From Amphiscolops sp. MND2022 (lineage: Eukaryota): DNA of 64,000 bases. How positions within the stretch are numbered: the stretch's first letter is position 1; each line of letters opens with the position of its first letter. The stretch covers positions 71,426,001 through 71,490,000 of the forward strand of contig OZ076409.1 of NCBI GenBank assembly GCA_964187785.1, given 5' to 3'. Under the pieces are notes generated by a model. It saw nothing but the letters and a program-made list of their open reading frames with translations. It was not told where the DNA came from and made no database searches. Shown piece after piece: positions 1 to 64,000 of the stretch. Made by a program: the position numbers and the translations under genes.

Positions 1-1463
1 ACCTACTCGCAGTCAAACACTCAACAAATTGCATCCAATGTGAAAATAAAATTTTTTTCGGGGTCATAAGCGTTTCACAAGGATTTCTCAACTTAGTATT
101 AATTTACAAAATGGTCATTTTGAACACAATATTTTCATCGAGGCTTGTCGGCTATAGCCTTAATGTTCTAGAACGGTCCCACTGGCAACGTAGGAACCAT
201 TTATAGTAATAGAAAGTTTTAAAAAAATTTTTCATCCGGTCTTCAGTCATTTTTCAGTCATTCGGAACTTAACTTAGAAAAATTTCGACCAAAATACCCA
301 TTTTTTGTCAGGTCGAAAATTCAAATTCAGATTTTTAAGCAAAATTATTAACTCTGACGTAACCCATGGGGCCCATGATACTCAAAACAACAATTGACAC
401 TGGTATCAATGGCTCCAATAACATATGAGTCGCGATAAGACGTTATTTTGAGCAATACGTCTCAATTGAGGTAAAGATCTCGCAAGCCAGCGATCACTGT
501 GAAATGTGATTTCATCAAAAATTTACTCATTTTTGTCAATCACTATGTGCACAGAATGCGTAGGGTGCGTTTCAGCACTATAATGAGGTATTTGAAAGCA
601 TCGAGTTGCTCAAGGGGTGGTATGAGACCTTTTTGTCCCATATACTTCTGTATTTTCCAAAATTTTTAGCCCAATATCTGGAAATACAAACATGACAAAA
701 TACTTTCAACTACTTTATTCAAAGGTTACAATATAGATGAACACTGTGGTTGATCAGAAACTTTCATCTCTTTCGTTTTCCGAAATATTTCCCTTCGCAT
801 GTGTTACATTTGTAGCAGAAAAAAAATCGATACAGAAAAATACGCTATTTTGCTAATATAGAATCGCAATGATTGTGCCTAAAAACTCTTTAAACACTTC
901 TAACGCGACCTTACGCACCCAAAAAGATCGAAAAGGCTATTCACAATGGTGACTTGTGCTCTTTCAACGATCCTGACTGAACAATTTTCGCAAATTATTC
1001 AAGTACCTGTTAACTGAATCTCGTGATAGCCTTTTAAGTTGGCCTTGTGTCAACTTGGGAAGGCTATCACATCAAAAAATTTTCAACAAAAATACTTTTT
1101 GTTTATTGAAAATGACAGTCGATATATAATTTCGTGATTCTATGCTACCGTTAGTACCTTCCATTAAGTCACCTGACGATTGCATTCAGTCTTTGATAAA
1201 TACCTATGAACTCGAAGTCATATTTATAAATTTTTTGCTAAAAATAAACATCAAAATTATCCAAATTTATTAAAATTGAGTCTTTATTGTTTTTGTTTTT
1301 CTTTTTCTACTGTTATTAGGCCCATCAACTTCCTACAGCCACGCTCTCTGTCATACTGTACAACGCCACATAGTGTTGCGACGTGCACGGTCTGTGGGCA
1401 TGCCGAGGCATGCCCTTCGACGACGTATGCCGAATACCGCGGGCCTACGCCCGCGCTCCCCGG
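1..1463 (+). mobile_element. Cassette U0 (partial, 2.0-kb family)
   Basis: Aligns by eye with the 3' part of U4/U10; type A hairpin 1023-1070; core hairpin at 1396. Mobility is inferred. Confidence 0.55.
1023..1070 (+). other. Type A internal hairpin (representative)
   Basis: GTGATAGCCTT-tt-AAGTTG-gccttgtgt-CAACTT-ggg-AAGGCTATCAC imperfect inverted repeat; one copy in every 1.39-, 2.0- and 2.79-kb cassette. Confidence 0.85.
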
Positions 1464-1471
1464 CTAGGTGG
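1361..1471 (+). other. Conserved terminal core + variable tail + junction (representative of 27 copies)
   Basis: CAACGCCACA...GACG(C/T)SCAC direct repeats, hairpin GGGCATGC-CGAG-GCATGCCC (1396-1415), TTCGACGACGTATG, tail hairpin CGCGGGC-ctac-GCCCGCG, then CTAGGTGG (1464-1471). Confidence 0.9.
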
Positions 1472-3669
1472 GCGGGGGTAATTCCCCAACAAAAAAATCG
1501 GCCGGCGGGTCGGGTCCTGCCGGCCGTCCAAAATCAAAATCCTCCTAGTAGAAAACGGCATGTCAAACGAGCTATTTTTTTATTTAACCGTTAGAATTTG
1601 GGTTTAGATTGCATGCGGCCATGAAATGGCCATACGAATGGAAGTTCCTGCTGACGTTTTGCGATTGAAACACTTTATAAAAAGTTATGGCCAATTTGTC
1701 ATTCACCTAGAAGGGCAAAATGAGGAAAATTTTAACAAAGTCACTGATAACTCAAAATGTAATAATTTTTGGACTTTGACAGTGAAACAAGCTTGGAACT
1801 GTCATTTCGTGGCTGTGGCATTGCACTGAACACAAAAGATGTAAAGTTTTCACATTTTTTGAAAATTCGACATTTTTGAATTTTTTTTCACTACTATCAG
1901 TACACTATATGTCAAAAACGCCTCTGAAAAAAATTATTATTTGCTTAAAATTAGAAACCTTGGTATCCATGGTTTCCGTCAGTACCTACTCGCTGCCAAA
2001 CGCTCAACAGTTTGCATCCAATGTGAAAATATAATTTTTTTCGAGGTCATAGGTGTTTCACAAGGATTTCTCAACTTAGTATCTATTTACAAATTGGTCA
2101 TTTTGAACACATTATTTTCATCGAAGCGTGTCAGATACCACCCTAATGCTCACGAATGGGCCTACTGGCAACGTTGGAACCATTTTTAGTAATAGAAAGT
2201 ATTAAAAAAATATTTTCACCCGGTCTTCAGTCATTTTTCAGACATTCGGTACTTAACTTAGAAAAATTTCGCATCAAAAACCCATATTTGGTAGGGTCGA
2301 AATTTGAAATTCAGTTTTTTATGCAAAATTATTAACTCTGACGTAACCAGTGGAGCCCATGATACTCAAAAACACGATTGGGACTGGTATCAGTGGCTCC
2401 AATAACATATGAGCCGCGATAAGACGTTATTCAGAGCAAACGCTCTAAATCGAAGTAAACATCTCTGAAGCCTGGGATCACAGTGAAATGTGATATCACC
2501 AAAAGTTTACTCTTTTTTGTCAATCACTATGTACACAGAGTGCGTAGGGTGAGTTTCAGGACTATAATGAGGTTTTTGAAGTAATCGCGCTGCTCAAGGG
2601 GTGGTATGAGACTATTTTTTCCCATATACTACTACATTTCCATAAATTTGCAGTCCATTGTCTTGGAAAGATAACTTCACAAAAACAATTTTTCTACTCT
2701 ATTCAGTTATTAGAATAAAGTTGAACACTGTGGTTGATCAGAAATGCTCAATTCTTATGGTTTTTAAAAAAATTCCTTCGCATTCGTTACATTTGTGGAA
2801 GGAAGGTTATCAGTAGCTCCAAAAAAACGAAATTTAGCACGAACAGACATGCAACGATGCAAAGCAAAAACGTTTTTACAACTTCCGACGTCATTATTTT
2901 ACCCAAGAAGTTCGAAATTATCATTCGCATGCTGTCATTCGCTATATATACGATCGCGGTCAATTTACAAACATTTAGATTTCATTGTTCTGCTTGAAAA
3001 CCAATTTTTGTCAGGTCGAAATTTTAAATTTTGCCTGGGGAGCAATACCCTTCACGCTGAAGTAAACAGTGGGGCCCAAGTTACTCAAAAACAAGAAAGA
3101 GACTGCTACAATATGTCCTAATAACATATAGACCACGATAGTACGTTTTTCACACAAAAAACTCTCATCCGAAGTAAATATGTTGAAAGCTTTTAATCAC
3201 CGTGAGAAGTGATTTCATCAAAAAATAACTCTTTTTTGTCAATCACTATTTACACAGAATTTGTAAAGTTAGTTTGAGTCATGAAATGAGGCTTTACCGT
3301 AATATGGGTTGCTCAAGGTGTTATATAAGACAAAAACTTCCTCTTTTCTACTAGATTCTTCAAATATTTCAACCCTTTGTCACAATAAGTTAATATTCAA
3401 AATCTCTTTGAAATGTATCTTTATGTTGGGGTGAAGTCTAAGAACAATAACTATGATCGAAGAATGCTAGTACTGGTGTTTGAACCATGTCCGGATGAAC
3501 AAATCACAAAATCATCAAAAAATTGTTCCCTTTTTTGGTTATTTTGGCAGTACTAAAAATGTTAGCCGATAAATAATTTTTTCGATGGCACCATTGGATT
3601 CCTCTCAAAAAAATTGTTATATGACCTGTGTAATAACCCCGTATCTTTTCAATTTAAATATATTTAAAA

Positions 3670-5040
3670 AGCCAACTATTTTGACCAAAATCCTAAAAAT
3701 CATACCAATTCCTAAAAATTTTCAAATGCACCCCATTTGACGTATAAGATAAGCACAGAAAACTATCATATACCGATCAACTCTACTCCTATTGTAGATT
3801 ATTAGAATTTTGTTTAGAATGAATTTTGATGAATATTAAAAAAAATTTGAACCCTCCAAAAATGGGCCAAAATTACACGAAAAAATTGACCTTAAAATAC
3901 CAAATTGTCAAAAAATCATCAAAACCCAGGCTTCTTGGGGTTCTATCAACTCCGCGTGGTCAACAGAGTATGCTAAAACAGGTTTTACCCGTTTTTGAGC
4001 AATATGTGAAAAAACCGACATTTTTGGGAAAGAAAAACATACCATTTCCTAAAAAAATTCAAATGCACGTCATTTGCCGTATTAGAATAGCACAGAAAAC
4101 TATCACATACCAATCAACTCCACTTTCATTGCAGATGAACAGAATTTTGTTTAGAATAAATTTTACCGGATAATAAAAAAATTTGAATCCTTTAAAAATG
4201 GGCCAAAAATACACGAAAAAATGGACCTTAAAAATTTAAAATGTCAAAAAATCATCAAAACAACAGCTTCTTGGGGTTCTATCAACTCCACGAGGTCCAC
4301 AGAGTATGCTAAAACAGGTTTTACCCGTTTTTGAGCAATATGTGAAAAAACCGACATTTTTGGGAAAGAAAAACATACCATTTCCTAAAAAAATTCAAAT
4401 GCACGCCATTTGCCGTATGAAAATAGCACAGAAAACTATCACATACCAATCAACTCTACTTTCATTGCAGATGAACAGAATTTTGTTTAGAATGAACTTT
4501 ACCGGATAATAAAAAAATTTGATTCCTTCTAAAATGGGCCAAAATTACACGAAAAAATGGACCTTAAAATTTTAAAATGTCAAAAAATCATCAAAACTAC
4601 GGCTTCTTGGGGTTCTATCAACTCCACGTGGTCCACAGAGTATGCTTAACCCGGTTTTACCCATCTTTGAGCAAAATGTGAAAATACCGACATTTTTGGA
4701 AAAGAAAAACATGCCATTTTCTAATAAATTTCAAATGCACGCCATTTGCTGTATGAGAATAACACAGAAAGCTGTCACATACCGATCAACTCTACTTCCA
4801 TTGTAGATTATCAGAAGTTTGTTTAGAATAAATTTTGAAGGATAATAAAAAAATTTGAATCCATCAAAAATGGGCCAAAATTACACAAAAAAATTGACCT
4901 TAAAATATCAAAATGTCAAAAAATCATCAAAACCACAATTTCTTGGCGTTCTATCAACTCCATATGATACCAAACCAGGTACTGCCAATCGTTTGAGTTA
5001 TAATAAAAAAACATCTTTTTTGGCAAGAATTCCATACCAT
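3670..5040 (+). repeat. ~336-bp tandem repeat, about 4 copies, inside U1
   Basis: Anchor (A/G)CCA(T/A)TT..TAA..AA.TT.CAAATGCAC at 3704, 4041, 4377 and 4713. Confidence 0.85.
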
Positions 5041-5251
5041 AAATAATAATCATGTTCCATATAAGAAGCGAATCATTTCAGATATATACCCTGTTCATTT
5101 TTTAAATATTACCGGTTATTAATTTAATAGATGTTTTGAATGTGAGCTTCCTAAAAGGTTCAGGTGTGATGATACGTAAATCGAACCTTAGTTTCATCGA
5201 AATCTCAATTGAATATGTCCAATCTTAACCATCAGATAACAAGAAACACTT

Positions 5252-5294
5252 AAGTACATTCCATCTCCCCATCGGGGGAGATGAGAATGTACTT
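5252..5294 (+). other. Type B internal hairpin (representative)
   Basis: AAGTACATTC-CATCTCCCC-atcg-GGGGAGATG-a-GAATGTACTT imperfect inverted repeat; one copy in every 1.27-, 2.19-, 2.37- and 4.76-kb cassette. Confidence 0.85.
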
Positions 5295-6222
5295 TCGAGA
5301 AGCCAAATACGTCCAACATTCAAACTTTTGTAACTTTGTATGTAACTCCTGAAACGAAGAAGGAATAAAATTGTTTCTGGTACATCGATGAGTCTTTACT
5401 TCAGCTTCTATTTCTGCTGAACAAAACCATTCGACTCTTTTGCCGGAGTTAAGATCGATTGTATTACCCAGTGAACAAAGGCATGACTGAAAACGTTTAC
5501 TACTTTGTTCATAATTTTCCGGCCTTCCGAAATGATGAAACGTCCACATAACTAAGATAGCAAGTGAATGACTGCGAAATGCACCTTATTAGATGAGGTA
5601 AATAACGTGTAAAACTCTCCTTTATCCTAACATGAGGTTGAGTAATGATCATTTGAGAATAGTTTGATATGTGAATACAATAGTATAAAACAAGTACATT
5701 TTATATGAATAACGCCGTGGAAAGCGTTCAGAAAGGACAGTAGGCTTGTTTGGAACATGTATGTGTGGTGTCCCTTGGTGGCGTTCGCTTAGTGTATATG
5801 TCGAGGGGTATTCGAGTTGTTATGAGAGAATTTACACACAAGTCTTTTGTTTTTTGGTTTTTTTAAAAAGTCGTTAAGTACCTGCATTCTATCCCCTTCT
5901 CAGAGATGACGTGAAGTTACGTTTGCTAAATAAATGTCATCTGAAGATCACACTCCCGACGAAATTAACTATCTTAACACGTGTTTAGAATTTTAAATAA
6001 ACAACCGTATAAGATTTTTATATTTCATTGAGTTTGATGAAGTCTTTTGTTCTTCTCACTACTATTTCAACCAATACACATATCCGTTACCATATCACAT
6101 GTCTCCATTAGTACAACGCCACATAGCGTTCCGACGCCCACAGTCTGTGGGCATGCCGAGGCATGCCCTTCGACGACGTATGGCAAATGGAGCCATGCCC
6201 GCCGTCTTTACGGCGGTAGCGG

Positions 6223-9013
6223 CTAGGTGGCGGGGGGCTGTCCCCAATAGAATATAGTGAGGTAGGGTAGGGTTCCCTACCGAACATTCAGTACTGAAAG
6301 ACTCTTGTAGTATGAAAATTTTTCGATGTTTTGAGACCGATTTCGGATTCCACCCGTCAGAAGTTTATGATTTTTTGGCCCCCACCCAGATTTTGGGCAC
6401 TGATCGCCCCCCACCAGGTTCCATACCCGTGGTTTCGTTGTGACGGGTACACGAGCGACCGTTAGGGGTCAATCAGGGGGTAAAATTTATAAAAGTGTGA
6501 ATAACTTTTCCCCCCGTCGTTTTAGCAGGTCCGGTCACTAGTAAAGGTTTGTTGGGCATCATGCAGTGGGTACGGGGGGCCAAACAAAAATTTTCTATCT
6601 TGCACCGTTACGGACTTGGCCCCCCGCCCAAACCGCTATTTTACCGGAAATTGCACTTTTTGACCGGGAAGGAGTCGTCTGAGCGCGGAGTCATTTGGTA
6701 ATGTTTTGTAGAGCATCTGGAGACGTGGTGGGGGACATGTAGTTTGCCGACCCCAGTTTACCCCTCGGACGGGAAATGACCGTTATGTGAGTTTCAAAAA
6801 TGCCCCCCTCCAATTTTCCCCGCAATTTCCGGTGTGAAGGAGTCGGAATAGCGTGTCGAGTGCTATATATCAAAAGTAGCTTTAAACAAGGACCTATCAG
6901 AAACATGTGGTTTGGGACCCTTTGAACGGACCCGTTAGCCGGAAATAGGGTGACCGCCTCCTTTTTTTGGTGGTAAAACCGTAAAACGGGCATTAAAGTG
7001 TAATTATCTCGTGAACGCGTGGAGCAATCGTGTCCATCACTCCTACAAGGTTTCATACCCATGACATGGTGCCTTCAGGGGGGCAAACAGATCAGCGCTA
7101 TCTATCACCGTTACGGACTTTGCCCCCCAGCCTAACCGCTATATTACCGGAAATTGCCCTTTTTGACCGGGAAGGAGTCGTCTGAGAGTGGAGTCGTTAA
7201 GTAATGTTTTGTAGAGCATCTAGAGACGTGTTGGGGGACATGTAGTTTGCCGACCCCGGTTTACCCCTCGGACGGGAAATTACCGTTATGTGAGTTTTAA
7301 AATTGACCCCCTTCAACTTTCCCCGTTATTTCCGATGTGAAGGAGTGAGGGTAGCGCGTCGGGTGTCATATATCAAAAGTAGGTTAAGACAAGGACCAAC
7401 CGGGAACATGTTGTTTGGGACCCTCTGGCCCAACCCGTTAGCCGTTATAAGGGTGATCGCCTCCTTTTTTTACTGCTAAAACCGGAAAACGGGCATTGAG
7501 GGGTAAATATCTCGTGAACGCGTGGAGCAATCGTGTCCATCACTACTACAAGGTTTCATACCCATGATACGGTGCCTTCAGGGGGGAAAACAGATTACCG
7601 CTATATATCACCGTTACGGACTTGGCCCCCCAGCCTAACCGCTATGTGACCGGAAATGTCATTTTTTGAGCCAAAAGGGTTGGTCCCAGCGTGGGAACGT
7701 CAGGTAACTTTATGTAGAACTCAATGAGACGAGTTGGGGGATATAGTTTTAGTCACCCCCCGTTGACCCGTTGGACCGGAAACGAACGTTATGTAGTGAA
7801 AAATGTTATTTTTATACTTTTTGAAGGCCATTTAGGGCAGGAAGTATCGGTAATATGTCTTTGGACAGTATACAATGAAAGTTTTGGTGTGAAACGAGCA
7901 ATCTGAAATAACCGTTATTATGATTCGGAAGTCACACTAACAGCGAAAATGACCGTTATGTAGTGAAAATTTTTTTCACAATTTTTTTTATTTTCGATAG
8001 GTCCTTCAAGCCAGGAAGTAGCTGTATTAGGTCTTTGGTCACTTTATGATGATTGTGGTGTTGTGAGATGACCGTACGAACTTGACCGTTATAATGCCCC
8101 TGAAGTTGCGGCGGCACGAGAAATTTCAGAAAGTTTGTCTTTTCTGTGTTTTGTTGGAATAAACATGTAATTTCATCAAACCAAAGTGCATTCAGGGTGT
8201 CAGAAAGCTTCAAGAAAAGAATTTGACAGGAAACATGAGGTGAGAAATAGGAAAATGCCACGGAAATCCAACCCGTTGGGAAGTAAAGATAATAAATTGG
8301 TTTGGAAGTGCCAATCGACGTGTAATTGCGGATCATAGCTACGATATTGTCTCTTTTGTTTCTTTTTGAAGACTTTGAACATTTTCACTTTATCAGCTTG
8401 AAGTTTCGACTCCATTAACTCAATAACCGTTACAATATGATAGCCCTCAAGTTGACCTTGTGTCAACTTGAAAGGGCTATCCTTTCACAACTGCGCAGCG
8501 ACAGTGTGATTGAGTGTTTTTGTTATTATCCATAGCCAATTTGAACTTCAACAAAAGTTTAACCATAGTTAAAAAATTTCATATGATTCTTTTAAAAGGA
8601 TAAGTAAGAAACAAATGTTTGACAAAAAACTTTCAACCTTTAATTTGTGGACTGAATATCAGGAAAACCATGTCTCCTAACGTTGTTGGATGAAATTCAA
8701 CATGATTCTTTTAATAGGATAACAAAGTTTGACAACATATTTTTTTATATTCTTTCGTTGGTGCTCTACATTTTAGGAAAACGAATTTTCCAACAAATAT
8801 TGTTGGCTGATGCCTGTTCATAGTGGCTTGAAAATTTCACCAACTGTAATGCTTTTTATCAAAGGTGAAACCGCTCCTTACCGTCGCATAATGTAATTCA
8901 AGCCGACGCCCACATGCCAACATCAACGCCCACCGTCCGTAGGCATGCCGAGGCATGCCTTTCGACGACGTATGCCAAATCACGCCCCTGCGAGGTCACT
9001 AAAGCGGTAGCGG
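6223..9013 (+). mobile_element. Cassette U2 (2791 bp, 2.79-kb class)
   Basis: Near-identical to U18 but with different neighbours on both sides; type A hairpin 8439-8481; core hairpin at 8941. Confidence 0.65.
6600..7660 (+). repeat. ~503-bp tandem duplication (2 copies plus start of a third) inside U2
   Basis: CACCGTTACGGACTT at 6603, 7106 and 7609. Confidence 0.85.
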
Positions 9014-9021
9014 CTAGGTGG
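8904..9021 (+). other. Terminal core, A-T compensatory variant
   Basis: AGGCATGC-CGAG-GCATGCCT: the outer G-C pair is replaced by A-T. The same variant occurs at 19671, 48566 and 56895. Confidence 0.9.
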
Positions 9022-10993
9022 GCGGGGGTAATTCCCCTTCAAAAAATTCGGCCGGCGGGTTGGGTCCTGCCGGACGTCAAATAGTGTGAAACATCCAGTA
9101 GGAAACGGCGACATAAATCAGCGATTTTAAAATTTAACCGTTAGAATTCGGACTTGGAGTGCATGCGGCCCCAAAATGCCCATACGAATCGAAGTTCCTG
9201 CTGACGTTAAGCGATAAAAACATTTTATAAAAAGTTATGGCCCATTTTACGTTCACCTATAAGGGTAAAATGAGTAAAATTTTTACTAAGTCGCTGATAA
9301 CTCAAAATACATTAATTTTTGGACTTTGACTGTGAAACAAGCTTAGAACCTTCATTTCGTGGCTGTGGCATTGCACTGAACACAAAAGATGTAAAGTTTT
9401 TACATTTTTTGAAAATTCGACTTTTTTGATTTTTTTTCACTACTATCAGTACACTATATGTCAAAAACACCTCTGAAAAAAATTTTTATTTGCTTAAAAT
9501 TGGAAACCTTGGTATCCATGGTTTCTGTCGGAACCTACTAGCTGCCAAACACCCAACAGTTTGCATCCAATGTGAAATTAAAAATTTTTTCGAGGTCTTA
9601 GGTGTTTCACAAGGATTTCTCAACTTAGTTTCAATTTACAAATTGGTCATATTGAACACAATATTTTCATCGAGGCTTGTCGGCTATAACCTTAATGTTC
9701 TAGAACGGTCCCACTGGCAACGTAGGAACCATTTATAGTAATAGAAAGTTTTAAAAAAAATTTTTCATCCGGTCTTCGGTCATTTTTCAGTCATTCGGAA
9801 CTTAACTTAGAAAATTTTCGATCAAAATACCCAATTTTGTCAGGTCGAAAATTCAAATTCAGATTTTTAAGCAAAATTATTAACTCTGACGTAACCCATG
9901 GGGCCCATGATACTCAAAACAACGATTGACACTGGTATCAATGGCTCCAATAACATATGACTCGCGATAAGACGTTATTTTGAGCAATACGTCTCAATTG
10001 AGGTAAAGATCTCGCAAACCAGCGATCACTGTGAAATGTGATTTCATCAAAAATTTACTCATTTTTGTCAATCACTATGTGCACAGAATGCGTAGGGTGC
10101 GTTTCAGCAATATAATGAGGTTTTTGAAGGCATCGAGTTGCTCAAGGGGTGGTATGAGACATTTTCGTCCCATATACTACTGTATATTGCAAATTTTTTT
10201 AGCCCATTATCTGAAAAACTAACTTGACAAAATACTTTCAACTACTTTATTCAAAGGTTACAATGTAGATGAACCCAGTGGTTGATCAGAAACTTTCATC
10301 TCTTTCGTTTTCCGAAATAATTCCCTTCCAATGTGTTACATTTGTAGCAGGAAAAAAACCGAAACTAAAAAATACGCGATTTTGCTGAGATAGAATCGCA
10401 ACGGTTGCGCCTAAAATCTCTTTAAATACTTCTAACGCAACTTTACGGACCCAAATTGATTGAAAATGCCATTCACAATGCTGACATGTGCTCTTTCTAC
10501 GATCCTGGCTGTACAAGTTTTGCATTTTTTTCAAGTACCTGTTAACTGAACATTGTGATAGCCTTTCAAGTTGGCCTTGTGTCAACTTGGGAAGGCTGTC
10601 ACATCAAAAAACTGTCAACAAAATACCACTCGTTTATAGGAAATTGCTGTCGATGCCTAATTTTGTGATTCGATCATGTCGTGAGTTCCTTCCATCAGGT
10701 CAGCTAACAATTGGATTCAGTGTTTGATAAGAACCTATGATTTTTTTGACAATTTTCGTTTTTTCTTGCAAAGAAAAAGTACAAATAAACAATATAAAAC
10801 AAAATTGTAACCTTTAGGAAGTTTAACTTTACCTTTTTTTAACCGTTACCATCACTTTTGACCCTGTACGACCTCGCAATGTCCTTATTACAACGCCACA
10901 TAGTGTACCGACGCCCACAGTCTGTGGGCATGCCGAGGCATGCCCTTCGACGACGTATGCCGAATGCACTGCGGCTACGCCCGCAGTCACCGG
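9014..10993 (+). mobile_element. Cassette U3 (1980 bp, 2.0-kb class)
   Basis: Junction-bounded; type A hairpin ~10554-10603; core hairpin at 10926. Confidence 0.6.
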
Positions 10994-12980
10994 CTAGGTG
11001 GGCGGGGGTAATTCCCCAACAAAAATTACGGCCGGCGGGTTGGGTCCTGCCGGACGTCAAATAGCAAAGAATATCTAGTAGGAAACGGCGACACAGAATC
11101 GCGATTTTTAAATCTAACCACAATTTTTTGGACTTGGAGTGCATGCGGCCCTGAAATGCCCATACGAATCGAAGTTCCTGCTGACGTTAAGCGATTGAAA
11201 TAATATATAAAAAGTTATGGCCCATTTTTCACTCACAAAGAAGGGTAAAATGAGGAAATTTTTAACAAAGTCGCTGATAACTCAAAATGTGTTAATTTTT
11301 GGACATTGACTGTGAAACAAGCTTGGAACCTTCATTTCGTGGCTGTGGCATTGCACTGAACACAAAAGATGTAAAGTTTTTACATTTTTTGAAAATTCGA
11401 CATTTTTGAAATTTTTTTCACTACTATCAGTACCCCATATGTCAAAAACGCCTCAGAAAAAAATTTTTATTTGCTTTAAAATGGAAACCTTGGTATCCAT
11501 GGTTTCTGTCGGATCCTACTCGCAGTCAAACACCCAACAGTTTGCATCCAATGTGGAAATAAAAATTTTTTCGGGGTCATAAGCGTTTCACAAGGATTTC
11601 TCAACTTAGTTTCAATTTACAAATTGGTCACATTGAACACATTATTTTCATCGAAGCGCGTCAGATACCGCCCTAAAGCTCACGAATGGTCCTACTGGCA
11701 ACGTAGCAACCATTTATAGTAATATGAAAGATTAAAAAAAAATTTTTCACCCGGTCTTTAGTCATTTTTCAGTCATTCGGAACTTAACTTAGAAAAATTT
11801 CGACCAAAATACCCATTTTTTGTCAGGTCGAAAAAGCAAATTCAGATTTTTAAGCAAAATTATTAACCCTGACGTAACCCATGGGGCCCATGATACTCAA
11901 AACAACGATTGACACTGGTATCAATGGCTCCAATAACATATGAGTCGCGATCGGACGTTATTTTGAGCAATACGTCTCAATTGAGGTAAAGATCTCGCAA
12001 CCCAGCGATCACTGTGAAATGTGATTTCATCAAAAATTTACTCATATTTGTCAATCACTATGTGCACAGAATGCGTAGGGTGCGTTTCAGCACTATAATG
12101 AGGTTTTTGAAGGCATCGAGTTGCTCAAGGGGTGGTATGAGACATTTTTGTCCCATATACTACTGTATTTTCCAAAATTTTTAGCCCAATATCTGGAAAT
12201 ACAAACTTGACAAAATATTTTCAATTACTTTATTCAAAGGTTACAATACAGATGAACACTGTGGTTGATCAGAAACTTTCATCTCTTTCTTTTTCCGAAA
12301 TATTTCCCTTCGCATGTGTTACATTTGTAGCAGAAAAAAAAATCGAAACTAAAAAATACGCTATTTTGCTAATATACAATCGCAATGATTGTGCCTAAAA
12401 ACTCTTTAAACACTTCTAACGCAACCTTACGCACCCAAAATGATCGAAAATGCTATTCACAATGGTGACATGTGCTCTTTCAACGATCCTGGCTGGACAA
12501 GGTTTGCATATTTTTCAAGTACCTGTCAGCTGAATCTTGTGATAGCCTTTTAAGTTGGCCTTGTGTCAACTTGGGAAGGCTATCACATCAAACAACCATC
12601 AACAAAAATAATTTTTGTTTATTGGATATTACAGTTGATACCTTATTTCGTGATTCTATACTACCGTTAGTATATTCCATGAGGTCACCTTACGATTGCA
12701 TTCAGACTTTGATGAAAACCTATGAACTCAAAGTCACATTTATATATTTTTTGCCCAAAAAAATCATCAAAAACATCTAATATATATAAAATTGAGACTT
12801 TAACTTTTTTACGTTTCAAGTTTCTGCCGTTATTAGGCCCATCAACTTCCTACAGCCACGCTCTCTGTCATACCGTACAACGCCACATAGTGTTGCGACG
12901 TGCACAGTCTGTGGGCATGCCGAGGCATGCCCTTCGACGACGTATGCCGAATACCGCGGGCCTACGCCCGCGCTCTCCGG
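10994..12980 (+). mobile_element. Cassette U4 (1987 bp, 2.0-kb class)
   Basis: Junction-bounded; type A hairpin ~12538-12587; core hairpin at 12913. Confidence 0.6.
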
Positions 12981-15900
12981 CTAGGTGGGCGGGGGTAATT
13001 CCCCAACTAAAAAATCGGCCGGCGGGTAGGGTCCTGCCGGCCGTCCAAAATCAAAAATATACTAGTAGAAAACGGCCGGTCAAACGAGCTATTTTTTTAT
13101 TTAACCGTTAGAATTTGGGTTTAGATTGCATGCGGCCATGAAATGGCCATACGAATCGAAGTTCCTGCTGACGTTTTGCGATTGAAACACTTTATAAAAA
13201 GTTATGGCCAATTTCTCAGTCACCTAGAAGGGCAAAATGAGGAAAATTTTAACAAAGTCGCTGATAACTCAAAATGTGTTATTTTTTGGACTTTGACTGT
13301 GAAACAAGCTTGGAACCTTCATTTCGTGGCTGTGGCATTGCACTGAACGCAAAAGATGTAAAGTTTTTACATTTTTTGAAAATTTGATATTTTTGAAATT
13401 TTTTTCACTACTATCAGTACCATATATGTCAAAAACACCTCAGAAAAAAAATTTTATTTGCTTTAACTTGGAAACCTTGGTATCCATGGTTTCTGTCGGA
13501 ACCTACTCGCAACCAAACAACCAACAGTTTGCATCCAATGTGAAAATAAAAAATTTTTCTGGGTCATAAGCGTTTCACAAGGATTTCTCAACTTAGTATT
13601 AATTTACAAAATGGTCATTTTGAACACAATATTTTCATCGAGGCTTGTCGGCTATAGCCTTAATGTTCTAGAACGGTCCCACTGGCAACGTAGGAACCAT
13701 TTATAGTAATAGAAAGTTTAAAAAATATATTTTCACCCTGTCTTCAGTCATTTTTCAGTCATTCGGAACTTAACTTAGAAAAATTTCGACCAAAATACCC
13801 ATTTTTTGACAGATCGAAAATTCAAATTCAACTTTTTAAGCAAAATTATTAACTCTGACGTAACCAGTGGGGCTCATGATACTCAAAAACACGATTGGGA
13901 CTGGTACCAATGGCTCCAATATCATATGAGCCGCGATAAGACGTTATTTTGAGCAATACGTCTCAATTGAGGGAAACATCTCGCAAGCCTGGGATCACAG
14001 TTAAAAGTGATTTCGTCAAAAATTTACTCTTTTTCGTCAATCACTATTAACACAGAGTGCGTAGGGTGAGTTTCAGCACTATAATGCGGTTTTTGAAGGA
14101 ATCGGTCTGCTCAAGGGGTGGTATGAGACATTTTTTTTTGCATGTAGTACTATATTTCTCAAAACTTTTAGCCCATTATCTCGAAAAGCTCACTTCGCAA
14201 ATTACTTTCAGTTACTCTTTTCGAAGCTTAGAATATATATGAACACTGTGGTTGATCAGAAACTCTTGACTATTTTGTTTTTGGAAAAAAACTGCCTTGC
14301 ATGTGTTACATTAGTGGCAGGAAAAATACCAGTAGCTCCAAAAATCACAATTTTGGACGGACAGACCTGCAATGATGCAAAGCAAAAACGTTTCAACAAC
14401 TTCTGGCGCCACTTTTTTTACCCAAGAGGTTCGAAATTACTATTAACAATGCTGACATTCGCTATAAATAAGATCGAGGTCAATTTACTAACACTTAGGT
14501 TATACATTTATATCTGAGAAACCATTCTTTGTCAGGTCGCAATTTTAAATTTAGTTTGGGAAGCAATACTTTTCACTCTGAAGCAAACCGTTGGGCCCAA
14601 ATTACTCAAAAACTACAAAAAGACTGTCACCATATGCCCTAATAGCATATGAGATTCGACCGTATGTTTTTAACACAAAAACTCTCATCCGAAGTAAACA
14701 TGTTGAAAGCCTTGAATCACCGTGAGAAATGATTTCATCAAAAAATATTCCTTTTTCGTCAATCTTTATCTACACAGAACACGTTGTGTCATTTTCAGCC
14801 GTGAAATGAGCTTCTACCGTAATATGGGTTGCTCAAGGTGTTATATAAGACAAAAACTTCCTCTTTTCTACTATCTTCTTCAAATATTTCAACCCTTTGT
14901 CACAAGAAGTTAATATTCAAAATCTCTTTGAAATGTTTCTTTAGGTTGGGGTGAAGTGTTAGAACAATAATTATGATCGAAGAATGATAGTATTGGTGTT
15001 TGGACCATGTCCGGATGAACAAATTGCAAAATCATGAAAAATTTCTTACCATTTTTGGTCATTTTGTCAGTACTAAAAATGTTAGCTGAAAAAGAATTTT
15101 TTTGATGGCACCATTGGATTCCTCTCAAAAAGTTAGCTATATGAACTGTGTAATAACCCCGTATCTTTTCAATTTAAATAATTTTAAAAAGCAAACTTTT
15201 TTGACTAAAATCCTAAAAATCATACCATTTCCTAAAAAATTTCAAATGCCCCCCATTTGACGTATAAGAATAGCACAGAAAACTATCACATACCGATCGA
15301 CTCTACTTCCATTGTAGATTACCAGAATTTTGTTTAGAACAATTTTTGACGGATGCAAAAAAAATTTAAACCCTCCAAAAAAGGGCCAAAATTACACGAA
15401 AAAATTGACCTTAAAATTTTAAAATGTCGAAAAATCATCAAAACCACAGCTTCTTGGGGTTCTATCAACTCCACGTGGTCCACAGAGTATGTTAAAACAA
15501 GTTTTACCCGTATTTGAGCAATATGTGAAAAAGCCGACTTTTTTGGGAATGAAAAACATACCATTTCCTAAAAAATTTCAAACGCACCCCATTTGACGTA
15601 TAAGAATAGCACAGAAAACTATCACATACCGATCGACTCTAGTTCCATTGTAGGTTACCAGAATCTTGTTTAGAACAATTGTTGACGGATGCAAAAAAAA
15701 ATTAAACCCTCCAAAAATGGGCCAAAATTACACGAAAAAATTGACCTTAAATTTTTAAAATGTCAAAAAATCATCAAAACCACAGCTTCTTGGGGTTCTA
15801 TCAACTCCACGTGGTCCACAGAGTATGCTAAAACAGGTTTTACCTGTTTCTGAGCTATATGTGAAAAAACCGACATTTTGGGGAAGAAAAACATACCATT

Positions 15901-17744
15901 TCCTAAAAAATTTCAAATGCACGCCATTTGCCGTATGAGAATAGCACAGAAAACTATCACATACCGATCAACTCTACTTCTATTGTAGATTATCAGATTT
16001 TTGTTTAGAACAAATTTTTATGGATATAAAAAATTTTTAAACCCTCCAAAAATGAGCCAAAATAACACGAAAAAATGGACCCTAAATTTTTAAAATGTCA
16101 AAAAATTATCCAAACCACAGCTTCTTGGGGTTCTATCAGCTCCACGTGGTCCACAGAGTATGCTAAAACAGGTTTTGCCCGTTTTTGAGCAGTATATGAA
16201 AAAGCCGACATTTTTGGGGAAGAAAAACATACCATTTCCTAAATAATTTCAAATGCAGGCAATTTGCCGTATGAGAGTAGCACAGAAAACTATCACACAC
16301 CGATCAACTCTACTTCTTTTGTAGATTATCAGAATTATGTTTAGAGTAAAGTTTTATGGATATGAAAAATTTTTATACCCTCCAAAAATGGGCCAAAATG
16401 ACACGAAAAAATTGACCTCAAATTTTTAAAATGTCAAAAAATTATCCAAACCACAGCGTCTTGGCGTTCTATCAACTCCAAATGACCTTCAGAGTATACC
16501 AAACCAGGTATTGCCAATCTTTTGAGCAATATTTAAAAACACCGACTATTTGGCAAGAACACCATAATATGTTCCATATAAGAAGTGAATCATTCCACAT
16601 ATATACCCGGTCTAATATTTCCAAATTAGCGATAACATTTATACATGATGGTTTTTGAAAGTGAGCTTCATAAGAGGTTGAGATGTAATAATACGTAAAT
16701 GGACCCTAAGTTTCATTGAAATCTCAATGGAATACGTCCAATCAACTTCAATCCTAACTATTATATAACAAAAAACACTTGAGTACATTCCATCTCCCCA
16801 TCGGGGGAGATGAGAATGTACTTTTCAAAAGCCAAAAACTTCGAATTTTAAATCTTTTGTAACATTGTATGTAACTGTTGAAACGATGAACGAATAAAAA
16901 TGCTTCTAGTACCTTCATCAATTTTTGCTTCAGCTCCTATTTCTGCAGAACAAAACCAAAAGACACACTTACAGCAGTTAAGTTCGATTGTATAACTCAG
17001 TGAATAAAGGTATGACTGAGGAAGTTCACAAGTTGTTTCAAAAGTTTCCGGCCTTCCAAAATCATGAAACGTCCACACAACCAAGATAGCAAGTGAAAGA
17101 ATGCTGAATGCACCTTATTAGATGAGATAAATAATGTGTGGAACTTGCCATTATCTCAAGATGACGTTGATTTATGATCTTTTAAGGATAGTTCGATATG
17201 TGACCACAATAGTGGAAAACTTATTACTATTTGAAGAACACCGTGGAAAGCGTTCAGAAAGGACAGTATATTTGTTTCGAGCATGCATGCGTGTGTTCCT
17301 TTGGTGACGTTAGCTTAGTGTACATGACGGAGGTATTCGAGAGATTATGATAGAGTTTACTCACAAGTCTTTGTTTTTTTAAACTTTCTATGCCGTTGAG
17401 TACATTCGTAAGGTACATCCATCCCCTTCTCTGGGAATGTACGTTTGCCAAATGACTGTCATCCAAAATTCGTAATCCGGACGAGTTTAACTACATAAAC
17501 ATGTGATGAGCGTTTTCAATTCACAACCGAATAACATTTTTTTTCTCGAAAATGATGATGGTTTTGATTTTGATGTCTTCTACTTTTATCATCATGCAAA
17601 CGACCTTACCATGTCTCTCTTCTGTCGTCATTTGTACAACGCCACATAGCGTTCCGACGCCCACCGTCTGTGGGCATGCCGAGGCATGCCCTTCGACGAC
17701 GTATGCCAAATGAGCCATACCCGCACTCTGGAGTGCGGTAGCGG
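12981..17744 (+). mobile_element. Cassette U5 (4764 bp, 4.76-kb class)
   Basis: Junction-bounded; type B hairpin 16782-16822; 336-bp tandem; core hairpin at 17672. Confidence 0.6.
15190..16560 (+). repeat. ~336-bp tandem repeat, about 4 copies, inside U5
   Basis: Same repeat unit; CATACCATTTCCT near 15221, 15557, 15892 and 16228. Confidence 0.85.
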
Positions 17745-19740
17745 CTAGGTGGGCGGTAGGTTTCCCGTAGTCAAAAAAAATTGCAGGCCGGGGTAGGGGC
17801 CCTGGCCGAGGCAAAATACCATAGAAAAGGTACCAAATTATGTGAGTTTAGAAAATTGAGCCATACAAATTCTCTGAAAATTGCTGTGTGTACCCTATCG
17901 CCCAATCTAAGAACTTTTTCCTGCTGACGTTTTGCTCTCCAAATGTTACTAATATGACTTTTTGAAAAATTTATCTCTGGTTTTTCATCAAAAATAGTGA
18001 TTTTGGCAATTTTTGTGAAATATCTCTGATTGCATTAATTTTTGGACGTTGACTGTGAAACAAGGTCGGAACCATCATTTCGTGACCATGGCAATGCACT
18101 AAACACAAAAGATGTAGAGTTTTTAAATTTTTTGAAAATTTGACATTTTTAAATTTTTTTCACTACTATCAGTACCATATATGTCAAAATAACCTCAGAA
18201 AAAATTTTTTATTTTATTTAATTTAGAATCCTTGCTATCCATGGTTTCTGTTAGTATCTACTCGCTGCCAGAGACTCAACAGTTAGCATCGAATCTGAAA
18301 TTAAAAATTTTTTCGAGGTCATAGGTGTTTCACAAGGATTTCACAACATAGTCTTGTTTTACAAATAGGTCATTTACAACATCATATTTTCATCGAGGCA
18401 TGTCGGATATAGTCTTATTGCTCACGAACGGTCCTACTGGCAACGTAATAACCATTTATAGAAATATAAAGTTTTAAAAAAAATCTTTTCACCCGTTCTT
18501 CAGACATTTTTTAGACATTCGGAACTTAACTTAGAAAAATTTCGTCTCAAAAACCCATTTTTCGTCAGGTCGAAATTTGAAATTCAGCTTTTGAAGCACA
18601 AATATGCACTCTGACGTAACCAGTAGGGCCAATGATACTCAACAACACCATTGAGACTGGTATCAGTCGCTCCAAAAACATATGAGCCGTGATAAGACGT
18701 TTTTTCAACAATACTGTTCAATTGATGTAAACATCGCGGAAGCCTTGGATTACAGTGAAAGTTGATTTGAACAAAAATTTACTCTTTTTTGTCAATCACT
18801 ATGTAGACAGAATGCGTAGGGTAAGTTTCAGCACTAATATGAAGATTTGGAAGGAATCGGGTTGCTCAAGGCGTGGTATGAGACACTTTTTTCTCATATA
18901 CTAGTGTTTTTCAAAAACTTTTCGTTAAATATCTCGAAAAGCAAACATTAAAAAATACTTTCTGATATCTAATTTAAATCCTAGAATATAAATGAATCAT
19001 GTGGTTGATCAGAAACTCTCTACTTTAATGTTTCAAGAAAAAAATCCCTTCCCATGTTTTATATCTGTAGCAGTAAAAAAAGTAGACGCTAAAAAATACG
19101 CTATTTTGCTAAGATTGAATTGCAATTGTTTAGCTTTAAAACTCTTTTAATACTTCTAACGCCACCTTAAGGACTCAAGATGATTGAAAATGTCAATCAC
19201 AATGCTGACATGTAGTCTTTCTACGATCCTGGCTGGACAGATTTTGATTATTTTTCAAGTACCTGTTAACTGAATCTCGTGATAGCCTTCTAAGTTGACC
19301 TTCTGCGTCAACTTGAGAAGGCTATCACTAAAATAAACTAAATTCTGATTTGTTTGTTTGTTTGTTCCTAACGTCTTTTGGTACGATCGTCTTACGGTTA
19401 GTTGGTTAAACCAGGTCGCTTATACTTCCACAATTTTCGACCACCGTCCGTGTATTCGGTTCACACGACTTTACATTTTCAGTCGTTTGTTTTCGATAAC
19501 TATCACAATGTACTGCCATTAGCGCAAAATTCATACTAGTACTTGGTTGGTTGAAATACTTAAACAACTGTTTCCATAGTTATTCGCGGTGATGGTACAA
19601 TCCGCGCGCCTACATACCTACGGCGTCTTGTCACTACAACGCCACATAGGAAACAACGCCCATAGTCCGTAGGCATGCCGAGGCATGCCTTTCGACGACG
19701 CGCGCCAAATCTATGCGCGCCCGCACTTGTGCGGTAGCTG
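17745..19740 (+). mobile_element. Cassette U6 (1996 bp, divergent 2.0-kb class)
   Basis: Divergent head and an unrelated-looking 3' segment (~19330-19630) but the same length class; type A hairpin 19279-19328; core hairpin at 19671. Confidence 0.6.
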
Positions 19741-21729
19741 CTAGGTGGGCGGGGGTAATTCCCCAACAAAAAAATCGGCCGGCGGGTCGGGTCCTGCCGG
19801 CCGTCCAAAATCAAAATCCTCCTAGTAGAAAACGGCATGTCAAACGAGCTATTTTTTTATTTAACCATACGAATTTCACCATTTTTTGCATGCGGCCCTG
19901 AAATGGCCATACGAGACGAAGTTCCTGCTGTCGTTTTGCGATGTAAATGTTTTATAAAAAGTTATGGCCGATTTGTCATTCACCTAGAAGGGTAAAATGA
20001 GGAAAATTTTAACAAAGTCGCTGATAACTCAAAATGTGTTAATTTTTGGACTTTGACTGTGAAACAAGCTTGGAACCTTCATTTCGTGGCTGGGGCATTG
20101 GACTGAACACAAAAGATGTCAAGTTTTTACGTTTTTTGAAAATTCGACATTTTTGAAATTTTTTTCACTACTATCAGTACCCCATATGTCAAAAACACCT
20201 CAGAAAAAAATTTTTATTTGCTTTAAATTGGAAACCTTGGTATCCATGGTTTCTGTCGGAACCTACTCGCAGCCAAACACCCAACAGTTTGCATCCAATG
20301 TGAAAATAAAAATTTTTTCGGGGTCATAAGCGTTTCACAAGGATTTCTCAACTTAGTATTAATTTACAAAATGGTCATTTTGAACATAATATTTTCATCG
20401 AGGCTTGTCGGCTATAGCCTTAATGTTCTAGAACGGTCCCACTGGCAACGTAGCAACCATTTATAGTAATATAAAAGGTTAAAAAATTTTTTTCACCCGG
20501 TCTTTAGTCATTTTTCAGACATTCGGAACATAACTTAGAAAATTTTCGACCCAAATACCCATTTTTTGTCAGGTCGAAACTTAAAATTCAGCTATTAAAG
20601 CAAAATTATTTACTCTGACGTAACCAGTGGGGCCCATGATACTCAAAAACACCATTGGCACTGGTACCAATGGCTCCAATAACATATGAGTCGCGATAAG
20701 ACGTTATTTTGAGCAATACGTCTCAATTGAGGTAAAGATCTCGCAAGCCAGCGATCACTGTGAAATGTGATTTCATCAAAAATTTACTCATTTTTGTCAA
20801 TCACTATGTGCACAGAGTGCGTAGGGTGAGTTCCAGCACTATAATGAGGTTTTTGAAGGCATCGGGTTGCTCAAGGGGTGGTATGAGACATTTTTTTCCT
20901 ATATACTACTGTGTTTTCCAAAACTTTTAGCCCATTATCAGGAAAAAATAATTTGACAAAATACTTCCAACTACTTTATTCAAAGGTTACAATATAGATG
21001 AACACTGTGGTTGATCAGAAACTTTCATCTCTTTCGTTTTCCGAAATAATTCCCTTCGAATGTGTTACATTTGTAGCCGAAAAAAAAACCGAAACTAAAA
21101 AATACGCGATTTTGCTGAGATAGAACCGGGATAATTGTGTCTAAATACTCTTTAAAAACTTCTAACGCGACCTTACGGACCCAAAAGGATTAAAAATGCC
21201 ACTCACAATGCTGACATGTGCTCTTTCGACGATCCTGGTTGGACAAGTTTTGCAAATTTTTCAAGTACCTGTTAACTGAATTTTGGGATAGCCTTTTAAG
21301 TTGGCCTTGTGTCAACTTGGGAAGGCTATCACATCAAAAAACTTTCAACAAAAATACTTTTTGTTTATTGGATATTGCTGTCGATACCTTTTTTTGTGAT
21401 TCTATACTACCGTTAGTATATTCCATCAGGTCACCAGACGATTGTATTCAGTATTTGATAAAAACTTATGAACTCGAAGTCTTTTTCATATGTTTTTTGT
21501 TCAAAAAAATTATCAAAAAAATTTATATTATAAACAATTGAGTCTTTAACTTTTTTATTTCCCAATTTTCCAGTGTTATTAGGCTCATCAACTTCCTACT
21601 GCCACATCCAGACATTAGTACAACGCCACAAAGTGTTGCGACGTCCACCGTCTGTGGGCATGCCGAGGCATGCCCTTCGACGACGTATGCCAAAAATAGC
21701 GCCCTCCGCGGTCACTACCGCGGTAGCAG
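19741..21729 (+). mobile_element. Cassette U7 (1989 bp, 2.0-kb class)
   Basis: Junction-bounded; type A hairpin ~21289-21332; core hairpin at 21656. Confidence 0.6.
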
Positions 21730-23712
21730 CTAGGTGGGCGGGGGTAATTCCCCAACAAAAATTACGGCCGGCGGGTTGGGTCCTGCCGGACGTCAAATAG
21801 CAAAGAATATCTAGTAGGAAACGGCGACACAGAATCGCGATTTTTAAATCTAACCACAATTTTTTGGACTTGGAGTGCATGCGGCCCTGAAATGCCCATA
21901 CGAATCGAAGTTCCTGCTGACGTTAAGCGATTGAAATAATATATAAAAAGTTATGGCCCATTTTTCACTCACATAGAAGGGTAAAATGAGGAAATTTTTA
22001 ACAAAGTCGCTGATAACTCAAAATGTGTTAATTTTTGGACATTGACTGTGAAACAAGCTTGGAACCTTCATTTCGTGGCTGTGGCATTGCACTGAACACA
22101 AAAGATGTAAAGTTTTTACATTTTTTGAAAATTCGACATTTTTGAAATTTTTTTCACTACTATCAGTACCCCATATGTCAAAAACGCTTCAGAAAAATTT
22201 TTTTATTTGCTTTAAATTGGAAACCTTGGTATCCATGGTTTCTGTCGGAACCTACTCGCAGCCAAACACTCAACAGTTTGCATCCAATGTGAAAATAAAA
22301 TTTTTTCGGGGTCATAAGCGTTTCACAAGGATTTCTCAACTTGGTATTATTTTACAAAATGGTCATTTTGAACACAATATTTTCATCGAGGCTTGTCGGC
22401 TATAGCCTTAATGTTCTAGAACGGTCCCACTGGCAACGTAGGAACCATTTATAGTAATGGAAAGTAATAAAAAAATATTTTCACCCGGTCTTCAATCATT
22501 TTTCAGTCATTCGGAACTTAACTTAGAAAATTTTCGACCCAAATACCCATTTTTTGTCATGTCGAAAATTAAAATTCAGCTATTAAAGCAAAATTATTTA
22601 CTCTGACGTAACCAGTGGGGCCCATGATACTCAAAAACACCATTGTCACTGGTACCAATGGCTCCAATAACATATGAGTCGCGATAAGACGTTATTTTGA
22701 GCAATACGTCTCAATTGAGGTAAAGATCTCGCAAGCCAGCGATCACTGTGAAATGTGATTTCATCAAAAATTTACTCATTTTTGTCAATAACTATGTGCA
22801 CAGAGTGCGTAGGGTGAGTTCCAGCACTATAATGAGGTTTTTGAAGGCATCGGGTTGCTCAAGGGGTGGTATGAGACATTTTTTTCCTATATACTACTGT
22901 GTTTTCCAAAACTTTTAGCCCATTATCAGGGAAAAATATATTGACAAAATATTTTCAACTACTTTATTCAAAGGTTACAATATAGATGAACACTGTGGTT
23001 GATCAGAAACTTTCATCTCTTTCGTTTTCCGAAATAATTCCCTTCGAATGTGTTATATTTGTAGCCGGAAAAAAAAACGAAACTAAAAATTACGCGATTT
23101 TGCTGAGATAGAACCGGGATAATTGTGTCTAAATACTCTTTAAATACTTCTAACGCGACCTTACGGACCCAAAAGGATTAAAAATGCCACTCACAATGCT
23201 GACATGTGCTCTTTCGACGGATCCTGGCTGGACAAGTTTTGCAAATTTTTCAAGTACCTGTCAGCTAAATCTTGTGATAGCCTTTTAAGTTGGCCTTGTG
23301 TCAACTTGGGAAGGCTATCACATCAAAAAACTTTCAACAAAAATACTTTTTGTTTATTGGATATTGCTGTCGATACCTTTTTTTGTGATTCTATACTACC
23401 GTTAGTATATTCCATCAGGTCACCAGACGATTGTATTCAGTATTTGATAAAAACTTATGAACTCGAAGTCTTTTTCATATGTTTTTTGTTCAAAAAAATT
23501 ATCAAAAAAATTTATATTATAAACAATTGAGTCTTTAACTTTTTTATTTCCCAATTTTCCAGTGTTATTAGGCTCATCAACTTCCTACTGCCACATCCAG
23601 ACATTAGTACAACGCCACAAAGTGTTGCGACGTGCACGGTCCGTGGGCATGCCGAGGCATGCCCTTCGACGACGTATGCCGAATGCACTGCGGCGACGCC
23701 CGCAGTCCAAGG
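21730..23712 (+). mobile_element. Cassette U8 (1983 bp, 2.0-kb class)
   Basis: Junction-bounded; type A hairpin ~23274-23322; core hairpin at 23645. Confidence 0.6.
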
Positions 23713-63989: not shown

Positions 63990-64000
63990 CTAGGTGGTCG

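Follow-up and report, generated by a model that had tools for sequence, protein, structure and literature searches.

The tail, a variable segment of 28-41 nt lying between a near-invariant core and the sequence CTAGGTG, is on balance best explained as the 3'-terminal segment of likely non-autonomous Helitron-like units, in which it is a probable stop signal and has likely been re-paired with different bodies through homology-dependent exchange with the core as its end point. In all likelihood it is a terminal segment that varies, not a guide. Genetically, the tail behaves as though it adjoined the head of its own unit, which lies 2 kb away.

Organization of the array

The window, meaning the whole 64-kb stretch of DNA analysed (positions 1..64000, plus strand), consists entirely of 27 non-coding units (U0 to U26) arranged head to tail without a break and joined throughout at CTAG/GTG, where the slash marks the boundary between units. 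Coordinates given below are on the plus strand unless stated otherwise. Units range in length from 1270 to 4767 bp across the array, the partial U0 being excluded from this range, and fall into seven body groups by BLAST coverage. Each unit opens with GTG and two hairpins separated by a spacer; the body comes next, followed by a pair of ACGC(C)CAC-type motifs, the 36-nt core, the tail and CTAG. The closest pairs by identity are U1/U12 (98%), U2/U18 (100%), U17/U20 (96%) and U19/U26 (95%); the most similar units are never adjacent, which argues against plain concatemer copying of one unit. All four 4.76-kb units contain a 336-bp internal tandem repeat in about four copies (3696-4962, 15216-16566, 31924-33190 and 38665-39930), and an internal repeat of ~500 bp is present in U2 and U18.

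The longest open reading frame in the window encodes 143 aa. When 41 ORFs drawn from 13 of the 27 units were compared with Pfam, three matches were returned, none of them to a transposase, RepHel, Rep or nuclease. The sole match of the three to pass the cut-off, and barely so, was that of a 142-aa ORF of U2 (7959-8384, minus strand) to Flu_PB2_6th (E 7e-6); this Pfam match was discounted as probably due to chance, given an E value of 0.4 against solved PB2 structures. A tRNA scan of the window detected none, and Rfam searches of the window gave no match at the gathering threshold, with weak matches falling far below the gathering score (E of at least 0.25).

The junction and exchange of neighbours

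CTAGGTG occurs 33 times in the window (27 on the plus strand and 6 on the minus strand), with a mean of 2.9 expected by chance. The first junction, between U0 and U1, lies at 1464..1470, and CTAG/GTG is found at 27/27 junctions; a metagenome contig described below, L001, carries CGAG/GTG. In the U2/U18 (100%) and U17/U20 (96%) pairs, the two members retain their tails but are flanked by different units to the left and to the right, and their identity stops within nine shared bases around CTAG/GTG. A 519-nt contig from sequencing run X2, containing 363 nt without any difference, has a 3' end and tail like those of U9 followed directly by a head like that of U8, a succession absent from the window. 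Together, the neighbour changes and the join in the X2 contig indicate that the tail belongs to the upstream unit. As nine base pairs are too short for ordinary recombination, this suggests a boundary cut by an enzyme somewhere within the shared bases at CTAG/GTG. The search of sequencing runs returned two matching runs (share 0.07) and no RNA run among those listed, a result with no bearing on expression; contigs of both runs over 12000-31000 are short and of low depth. No solo insertion or empty site was found in the window, in L001 or among the run matches listed, and the termini and orientation of the units are therefore assumed.

Other readings of the junction were considered and rejected. 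Minicircles merely concatenated by the assembly are contradicted by the X2 contig, which joins a long-class tail to a head type other than its own, as in the array. The idea of a small element with inverted repeats, bounded by CAC and GTG, was discarded since its flanks are not direct repeats, and the tail is not the host flank of an insertion, since it moves with the upstream unit.

The core and subterminal zone

In U0, the subterminal zone (1351..1393) holds two ACGC(C)CAC-type motifs, variable in spacing and sequence, and several exchange intervals start in this zone. It is followed by the 36-nt core (1394..1429), which contains a palindrome (1396-1415) set on a longer imperfect stem. The core precedes CTAGGTG at 27/27 plus-strand sites, and its mean identity among eight representatives with different bodies is 98%, against 0.58-0.69 just upstream and 0.58 in the tail; the exact sequence GACGTATG is absent from two of the 27 cores (U6 and U19). 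The core folds into a stem of 14 pairs, 11 of them invariant, and 97.4% of cells are paired. A single pair, changed from G-C to A-T in 5/22 rows, is compensatory, and covariation support for the core structure is thin.

The core pattern matched one metagenome contig (L001) and returned zero matches against viral contigs and zero against prokaryote genomes. L001 carries this core, a 34-nt tail, CGAG/GTG and a two-hairpin head, with flanks mostly unrelated to the window; short stretches of it (550-608 and 990-1030; 39-57 nt, 80-87%) are common to several body families of the window. A degenerate second core was detected by nhmmer ~190 nt upstream of the live core in 5/27 units (U19, 50521..50602; U21, 54288-54367; U22, 56662-56738; U23, 58833-58912; U26, 63680-63761). 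No CTAG-GTG junction follows these relic cores, whose palindrome is preserved through paired changes in U19, U23 and U26, and they resemble stacked old ends.

Tail families and hairpins

A preliminary description of this DNA had delimited the tail as a 28-41-nt segment between core and CTAGGTG, and had named four tail families. Both statements are borne out: all 27 tails are 28-41 nt long behind a near-invariant core, and the four families and every membership named for them are present in the sequence. The family marked by the 12-nt 'acgcccgcagtc' divides into U3/U8 and U17/U20 by whole-tail distance. Clustering gave 14 groups of tails at 20% distance and nine at 30%. Mean tail-tail identity is 0.60 versus 0.50 for shuffled tails (95th percentile of the shuffled set, 0.60), and motifs at the start and end are common to the tails. 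The U0 tail (1430..1463) belongs to a 34-nt class with those of U4, U10 and U11, is related to those of U3 and U8, and forms a 7-bp hairpin (1438-1455) that ends 8 nt before CTAG. The U7 tail (21690..21729) is of the long class, as in U9 and U15.

The GC hairpin described earlier near CTAG is real but not general. The tails are GC-rich and self-folding, and 12/27 fold better than 95% of dinucleotide shuffles; 11 of these 12 have a 7-bp stem, which ends 6-8 nt before CTAG (10-12 nt from the 3' end). The other 15/27 tails lack a significant hairpin, with essentially none in U14, U17, U19-U23 and U26.

Re-pairing of tails and bodies

The claims that units with the same 3' body carry different tails (U7/U8, U3/U15, U5/U14 and U19/U26) and that unrelated bodies share a tail (U14/U23/U26) both hold. 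The 34-nt tail of U8 (23679-23712) follows a 3' body identical to that of U7, the heads of the two units being different. The U14 tail (41158..41196), which forms no stable hairpin, is 85-87% like the tails of U23 (59104-59140) and U26 (63953-63989), which belong to a different body family. Sharing across families was further found for U13 and U16, where the short 28-nt tail of the former (36402..36429) is 83% like that of the latter (44433-44461), and for U24 (60501..60530) and U25 (61768-61800), whose tails are 85% alike; bodies are unrelated in both pairs, and three tail families thus span unrelated bodies. The clearest tail-only replacement is U19 versus U26: the head of U19 is that of U26 (100% over 120 nt) and the body is 95% the same, and the U19 tail (50794..50825) is different. 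U23 (56966-59144) resembles U26 in head type, 3' body and tail and U24 in its 5' body (101-984), and is an interior swap with both ends kept.

The incongruence between tail and body that had been anticipated is evident from Mantel comparisons of tail distance with distance over the 100 nt preceding the conserved zone, which gave r of 0.17 for 25 units and -0.01 for nine units of the 2-kb family; by comparison, neighbouring 3' body windows correlate at 0.40-0.59 and 0.43-0.80 for the same two sets. Bodies are patchworks along their full length, the nearest neighbour shifting every few hundred bases and adjacent 150-column windows showing a mean correlation of only 0.29 (eight units). Painting of nine units under a copying model placed 54 donor switches, of which five fall in the 81-column core zone versus 2.1 expected, and five versus 3.6 and four versus 1.5 expected at other penalties; reciprocal events are tallied twice in these counts. 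The core zone is therefore enriched ~1.4-2.7-fold, and 5/9 units switch donor there. The enrichment is present at all three penalties, and a site-specific step would give it too.

The second crossover point that had been proposed inside the core is upheld in that exchange does occur in or just upstream of the core, but switches are found throughout the body and the exchange intervals vary by tens of bases. Divergence begins ~45 nt before the tail in U7/U8, ~70 nt before it in U5/U14 and only at the tail in U3/U15, and such differences between pairs fit homology-driven exchange. Apart from the core, no long stretch within the last ~400 bases is identical, and tracts replacing the 3' body are accordingly inferred to end in the core.

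Heads and head-tail coupling

The head of U1 (1468..1526) consists of GTGG, hairpin 1 (1475-1487), a spacer and hairpin 2 (1499-1526). This layout is constant although the sequence varies, and 15/26 heads fold better than 95% of shuffles. Within hairpin 2 (1505-1518 in U1), a GGG-N(1-3)-GGG pattern is kept in most heads despite altered stems and is missing in U19, U23 and U26. On the minus strand, main-family heads have a run of T between the two hairpins (1488-1498 in U1, and equivalents) that is not present in other families; a T-run between two hairpins is a layout reminiscent of small nuclear RNAs.

The tail had been described as exchanged independently of the cassette body. This is true of the adjacent 3' body but not of the unit's own head ~2 kb away. 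In the main family, 6/6 units with head type A carry long tails and 5/5 units with head types B or C carry 34-nt tails, an 11/11 class match (Fisher p 0.002; 0.008 when the duplicate U12 is dropped) for head classes that were set after viewing the data and for units that are few and non-independent; the other main-family head types (U6, U13 and U14) each occur with a further tail type. Tail correlation with windows of the same unit is 0.74 for bases 1-150 and 0.45 for bases 151-300, then lies between -0.08 and 0.23, as compared with a mean of 0.08 and a maximum of 0.56 among distant window pairs. Among U1-U26, the tail class is common to 20/22 pairs with heads at least 90% alike and to 8/22 pairs with the same 3' body; with a looser head cut, sharing falls to 28/61 pairs. 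The exceptions are U19/U26, which share a head but not a tail, and U14/U26, U13/U16 and U24/U25, which share tails but have heads only 54-63% alike.

The link of the tail to the head of the next unit is weak and inconsistent, with r of 0.15-0.38 (p 0.008-0.036) in one analysis, about -0.05 in another and p of 0.43 in a 2x2 comparison; a long tail is joined to head type A at 0/6 such junctions of the array. Base-pairing between tail and own head did not prove robust (p 0.09-0.15; best p 0.014 of six tests; p 0.07-0.48 on non-redundant units). Single good pairings exist, of 9 nt between the U25 tail and its own head and of 8 nt between the L001 tail and the next head, but the set fails permutation once redundancy is removed.

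Proposed mechanism and alternative explanations

Of the roles suggested for the tail in the preliminary description (specificity tag, guide-like segment and termination hairpin), the last fits best, with the 7-bp stems of 11 tails placed 10-12 nt from the 3' end as in the Helitron layout. In the favoured Helitron-like model, the stop signal would be the hairpin plus CTAG, and exchange would be anchored in the 36-45-bp core. Whole units, tail included, change neighbours within the nine shared bases at CTAG/GTG, as the pairs above show, the agent likely being an HUH rolling-circle transposase encoded elsewhere. The bodies are patchworks, and conversion or template switching that overwrites the 3' body would run as far as the core, which between body families would be the sole place for a tail swap. 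Main-family tails stay with their own heads, so that the piece usually replaced would be the body between the two ends, either on circles that have been excised, in which the tail runs through the junction into the head, or within the array through conversion without crossing-over. Against the Helitron-like reading stand the 41 ORFs from 13 units, which include no transposase, the 5' GTG in place of TC (26/26 units), CGAG rather than CTRR in L001, and the 15/27 tails that lack a significant hairpin.

The head-tail coupling would also follow if the tail were a specificity tag matched to its own head, such that mismatched chimeras form without being mobilised and only matched pairs amplify. The complete class match in the main family, the further tail type found with each of the U6, U13 and U14 heads, and the 20/22 same-head pairs that share a tail despite ~6 donor switches per unit all point this way. 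This explanation is nonetheless unlikely, given the common head and different tails of U19/U26, the common tails and dissimilar heads (54-63%) of U14/U26, U13/U16 and U24/U25, and a tail-head complementarity that is not robust across three analyses. A similarly unlikely and more far-reaching possibility is a cassette system in a eukaryote, built of rolling-circle elements that have a new end type (GTG...CTAG with an invariant subterminal hairpin) and use their own junction as target; on excised circles, a coupled address module would then be made up of the tail, the junction and the head, with bodies swapped at the core and the tail deciding the head or enzyme variant available to a unit. Rather improbable is a core palindrome acting as a second, enzyme-cut crossover site at which nicking or site-specific recombination would swap the tails. 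The near-invariance of the core across families and in L001, its compensatory pair, the donor switches of 5/9 units in the core zone and the start of cross-family tail sharing in or just upstream of the core are as expected for such a site, but protein binding would explain the conservation equally, the enrichment is modest with reciprocal events doubly counted, and the U7/U8 and U5/U14 intervals start upstream of the palindrome. Integration of circles at the core would moreover tie the tail to the next head, a link that is weak or absent.

An ordinary complex satellite, reshuffled through conversion and unequal crossing-over in the absence of any currently active transposase, would account for the patchwork bodies, the 336-bp internal tandem repeats and the absence of coding capacity. 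It is quite improbable, as neighbour changes are confined to nine shared bases, the terminal hairpin layout is kept as its sequence changes, L001 carries the same ends next to DNA that is largely unrelated, and single crossovers would destroy the head-tail match. The junction may alternatively be a small-RNA gene of spliced-leader-like or snRNA-like type, with the core as promoter, the tail as an exon ending at AG/GT and the head hairpins as the rest of the RNA. AG/GT resembles the splice-donor consensus and the tail length fits leader exons; AG/GT is invariant here and is followed by two hairpins. The tails, though, are GC-rich and self-folding, the inter-hairpin spacer is A-rich on the plus strand in most heads with no common U-rich site, and the Rfam matches noted above are all weak, making this very unlikely. 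The guide role, with core and tail as a scaffold-plus-guide RNA (CRISPR-like or TnpB/Fanzor-like) and tails as acquired guides, scarcely deserves credence. It matches the arrangement of a conserved hairpin followed by a variable 28-41-nt segment, but the tails are mutually homologous (0.60 vs 0.50 shuffled), form families with common start and end motifs and travel with the unit, and the 41 ORFs include no nuclease. Within the window, the longest match elsewhere was 8-11 nt for 27/27 tails, the same as for shuffles; the U7 tail (1 of the 27) had no match in plasmids, and the best match of the U0/U1 junction in phages had an E value of 0.8.

Comparison with known elements

The array units likely work like non-autonomous Helitrons and are assigned to neither HLE1 nor HLE2, as these are defined in PMC11417382. 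The CTRR 3' terminus of HLE1 is matched by CTAG in 27/27 units, taking CTAG as the cut, with CGAG in the related L001 junction; in place of the HLE1 5' TC, GTG follows CTAG at 27/27 junctions. The HLE1 hairpin, 10-15 nt upstream of the 3' end, has a counterpart in the 7-bp stems of 11/27 tails, with significant folding in 12/27. HLE1 elements insert between A and T and do not duplicate the target, a trait for which the window, L001 and the listed run matches offered no solo copy or empty site; an autonomous partner with these ends, encoding RepHel as in HLE1 and HLE2, did not appear among the 41 ORFs from 13 units. HLE2 elements have an asymmetric terminal inverted repeat of 11-17 bp, whereas the perfect repeat with the own head is 3-7 bp here (7 bp in 6/26), and no two-sided changes were found in the seven pairs formed with the next head. 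The hairpins that HLE2 elements bear at both termini have counterparts in the core hairpin of all units and in the heads, 15/26 of which fold significantly. HLE2 elements also have a 5' T and a T/T target, and the junction is without TT on either strand. With respect to Replitrons, which bear short direct repeats at both termini and encode a CRESS-like Rep, the shared junction bases of the array are indistinguishable from a terminal direct repeat, and no Rep was found among the 41 ORFs.

Resemblance to HLE1 and to Helraiser and Helibat elements lies in the 3' CTAG, the short GC hairpin that 11/27 tails have ~10-12 nt upstream and the precise head-to-tail junctions (PMC4778049), the palindrome of Helitrons being placed 10-15 bp before CTAG (PMC2267711; PMC4778049). 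The Helraiser hairpin, 11 nt before CTAG, is the terminator; its stem can be exchanged, the hairpin itself is dispensable for circles, and new Helraiser 3' ends arise naturally in bat genomes, including by insertion beside another element (PMC4778049), which fits variable and sometimes hairpin-less tails. Unlike HLE1, the array has a GTG 5' end, an extra, near-invariant long hairpin upstream, more than half of its tails without a significant hairpin and no RepHel among the 41 ORFs compared. HINE, DINE-1 and Helitron2 elements (PMC4067079, PMC7492417, PMC5148889, PMC11417382) likewise have a hairpin at each end and a subterminal motif that is complementary to the 5' terminus; some units contain tandem repeats in the centre, subfamilies diverge over the last 60 bp, and bodies are swapped between shared flanks, as exemplified by oyster HINEs (PMC7492417). 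Unlike these, the array is without a 5' T and a T-rich 3' end, and has an inverted repeat of 3-7 rather than 11-17 bp. Replitrons, putative HUH elements (PMC10288648), share insertion 3' of RG, a subterminal hairpin and a variable right-end sequence; in the array, by contrast, no terminal direct repeat distinguishable from the junction bases was identified, the tails are heritable families instead of fuzzy ends derived from parental flanks, and no Rep was found.

Finders based on TC...CTRR or on inverted repeats would overlook the GTG-start end type and its invariant core hairpin, which also occurs in an unrelated contig. Head-tail coupling, if it holds genome-wide, would be a sequence-level record of circular intermediates recombining or of a required pairing of left and right ends, and both features bear on end choice by rolling-circle elements and on the formation of large arrays. 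A description of tandem arrays of plant Helitrons is attributed to Xiong et al. (2016) in PMC11934779 and PMC13404089. Helitron tandem arrays are also described in Xenopus and cnidarians (PMC12001565; PMC11934779), and in the maize r1 and bat arrays different Helitrons abut head-to-tail with no spacer, an arrangement put down to one element inserting at the terminus of another already in place (PMC2267711). In the part of the literature that was searched, neither a GTG-start element nor head-tail coupling was described. Mixed head-to-tail Helitron stacks and turnover of 3' ends are already known, and the tail alone is no new system. The present array differs from the maize and bat stacks in comprising at least 27 units of seven body groups that all meet at the same invariant junction, have mosaic bodies and show coupling of head and tail, and the coupling is the part worth pursuing.
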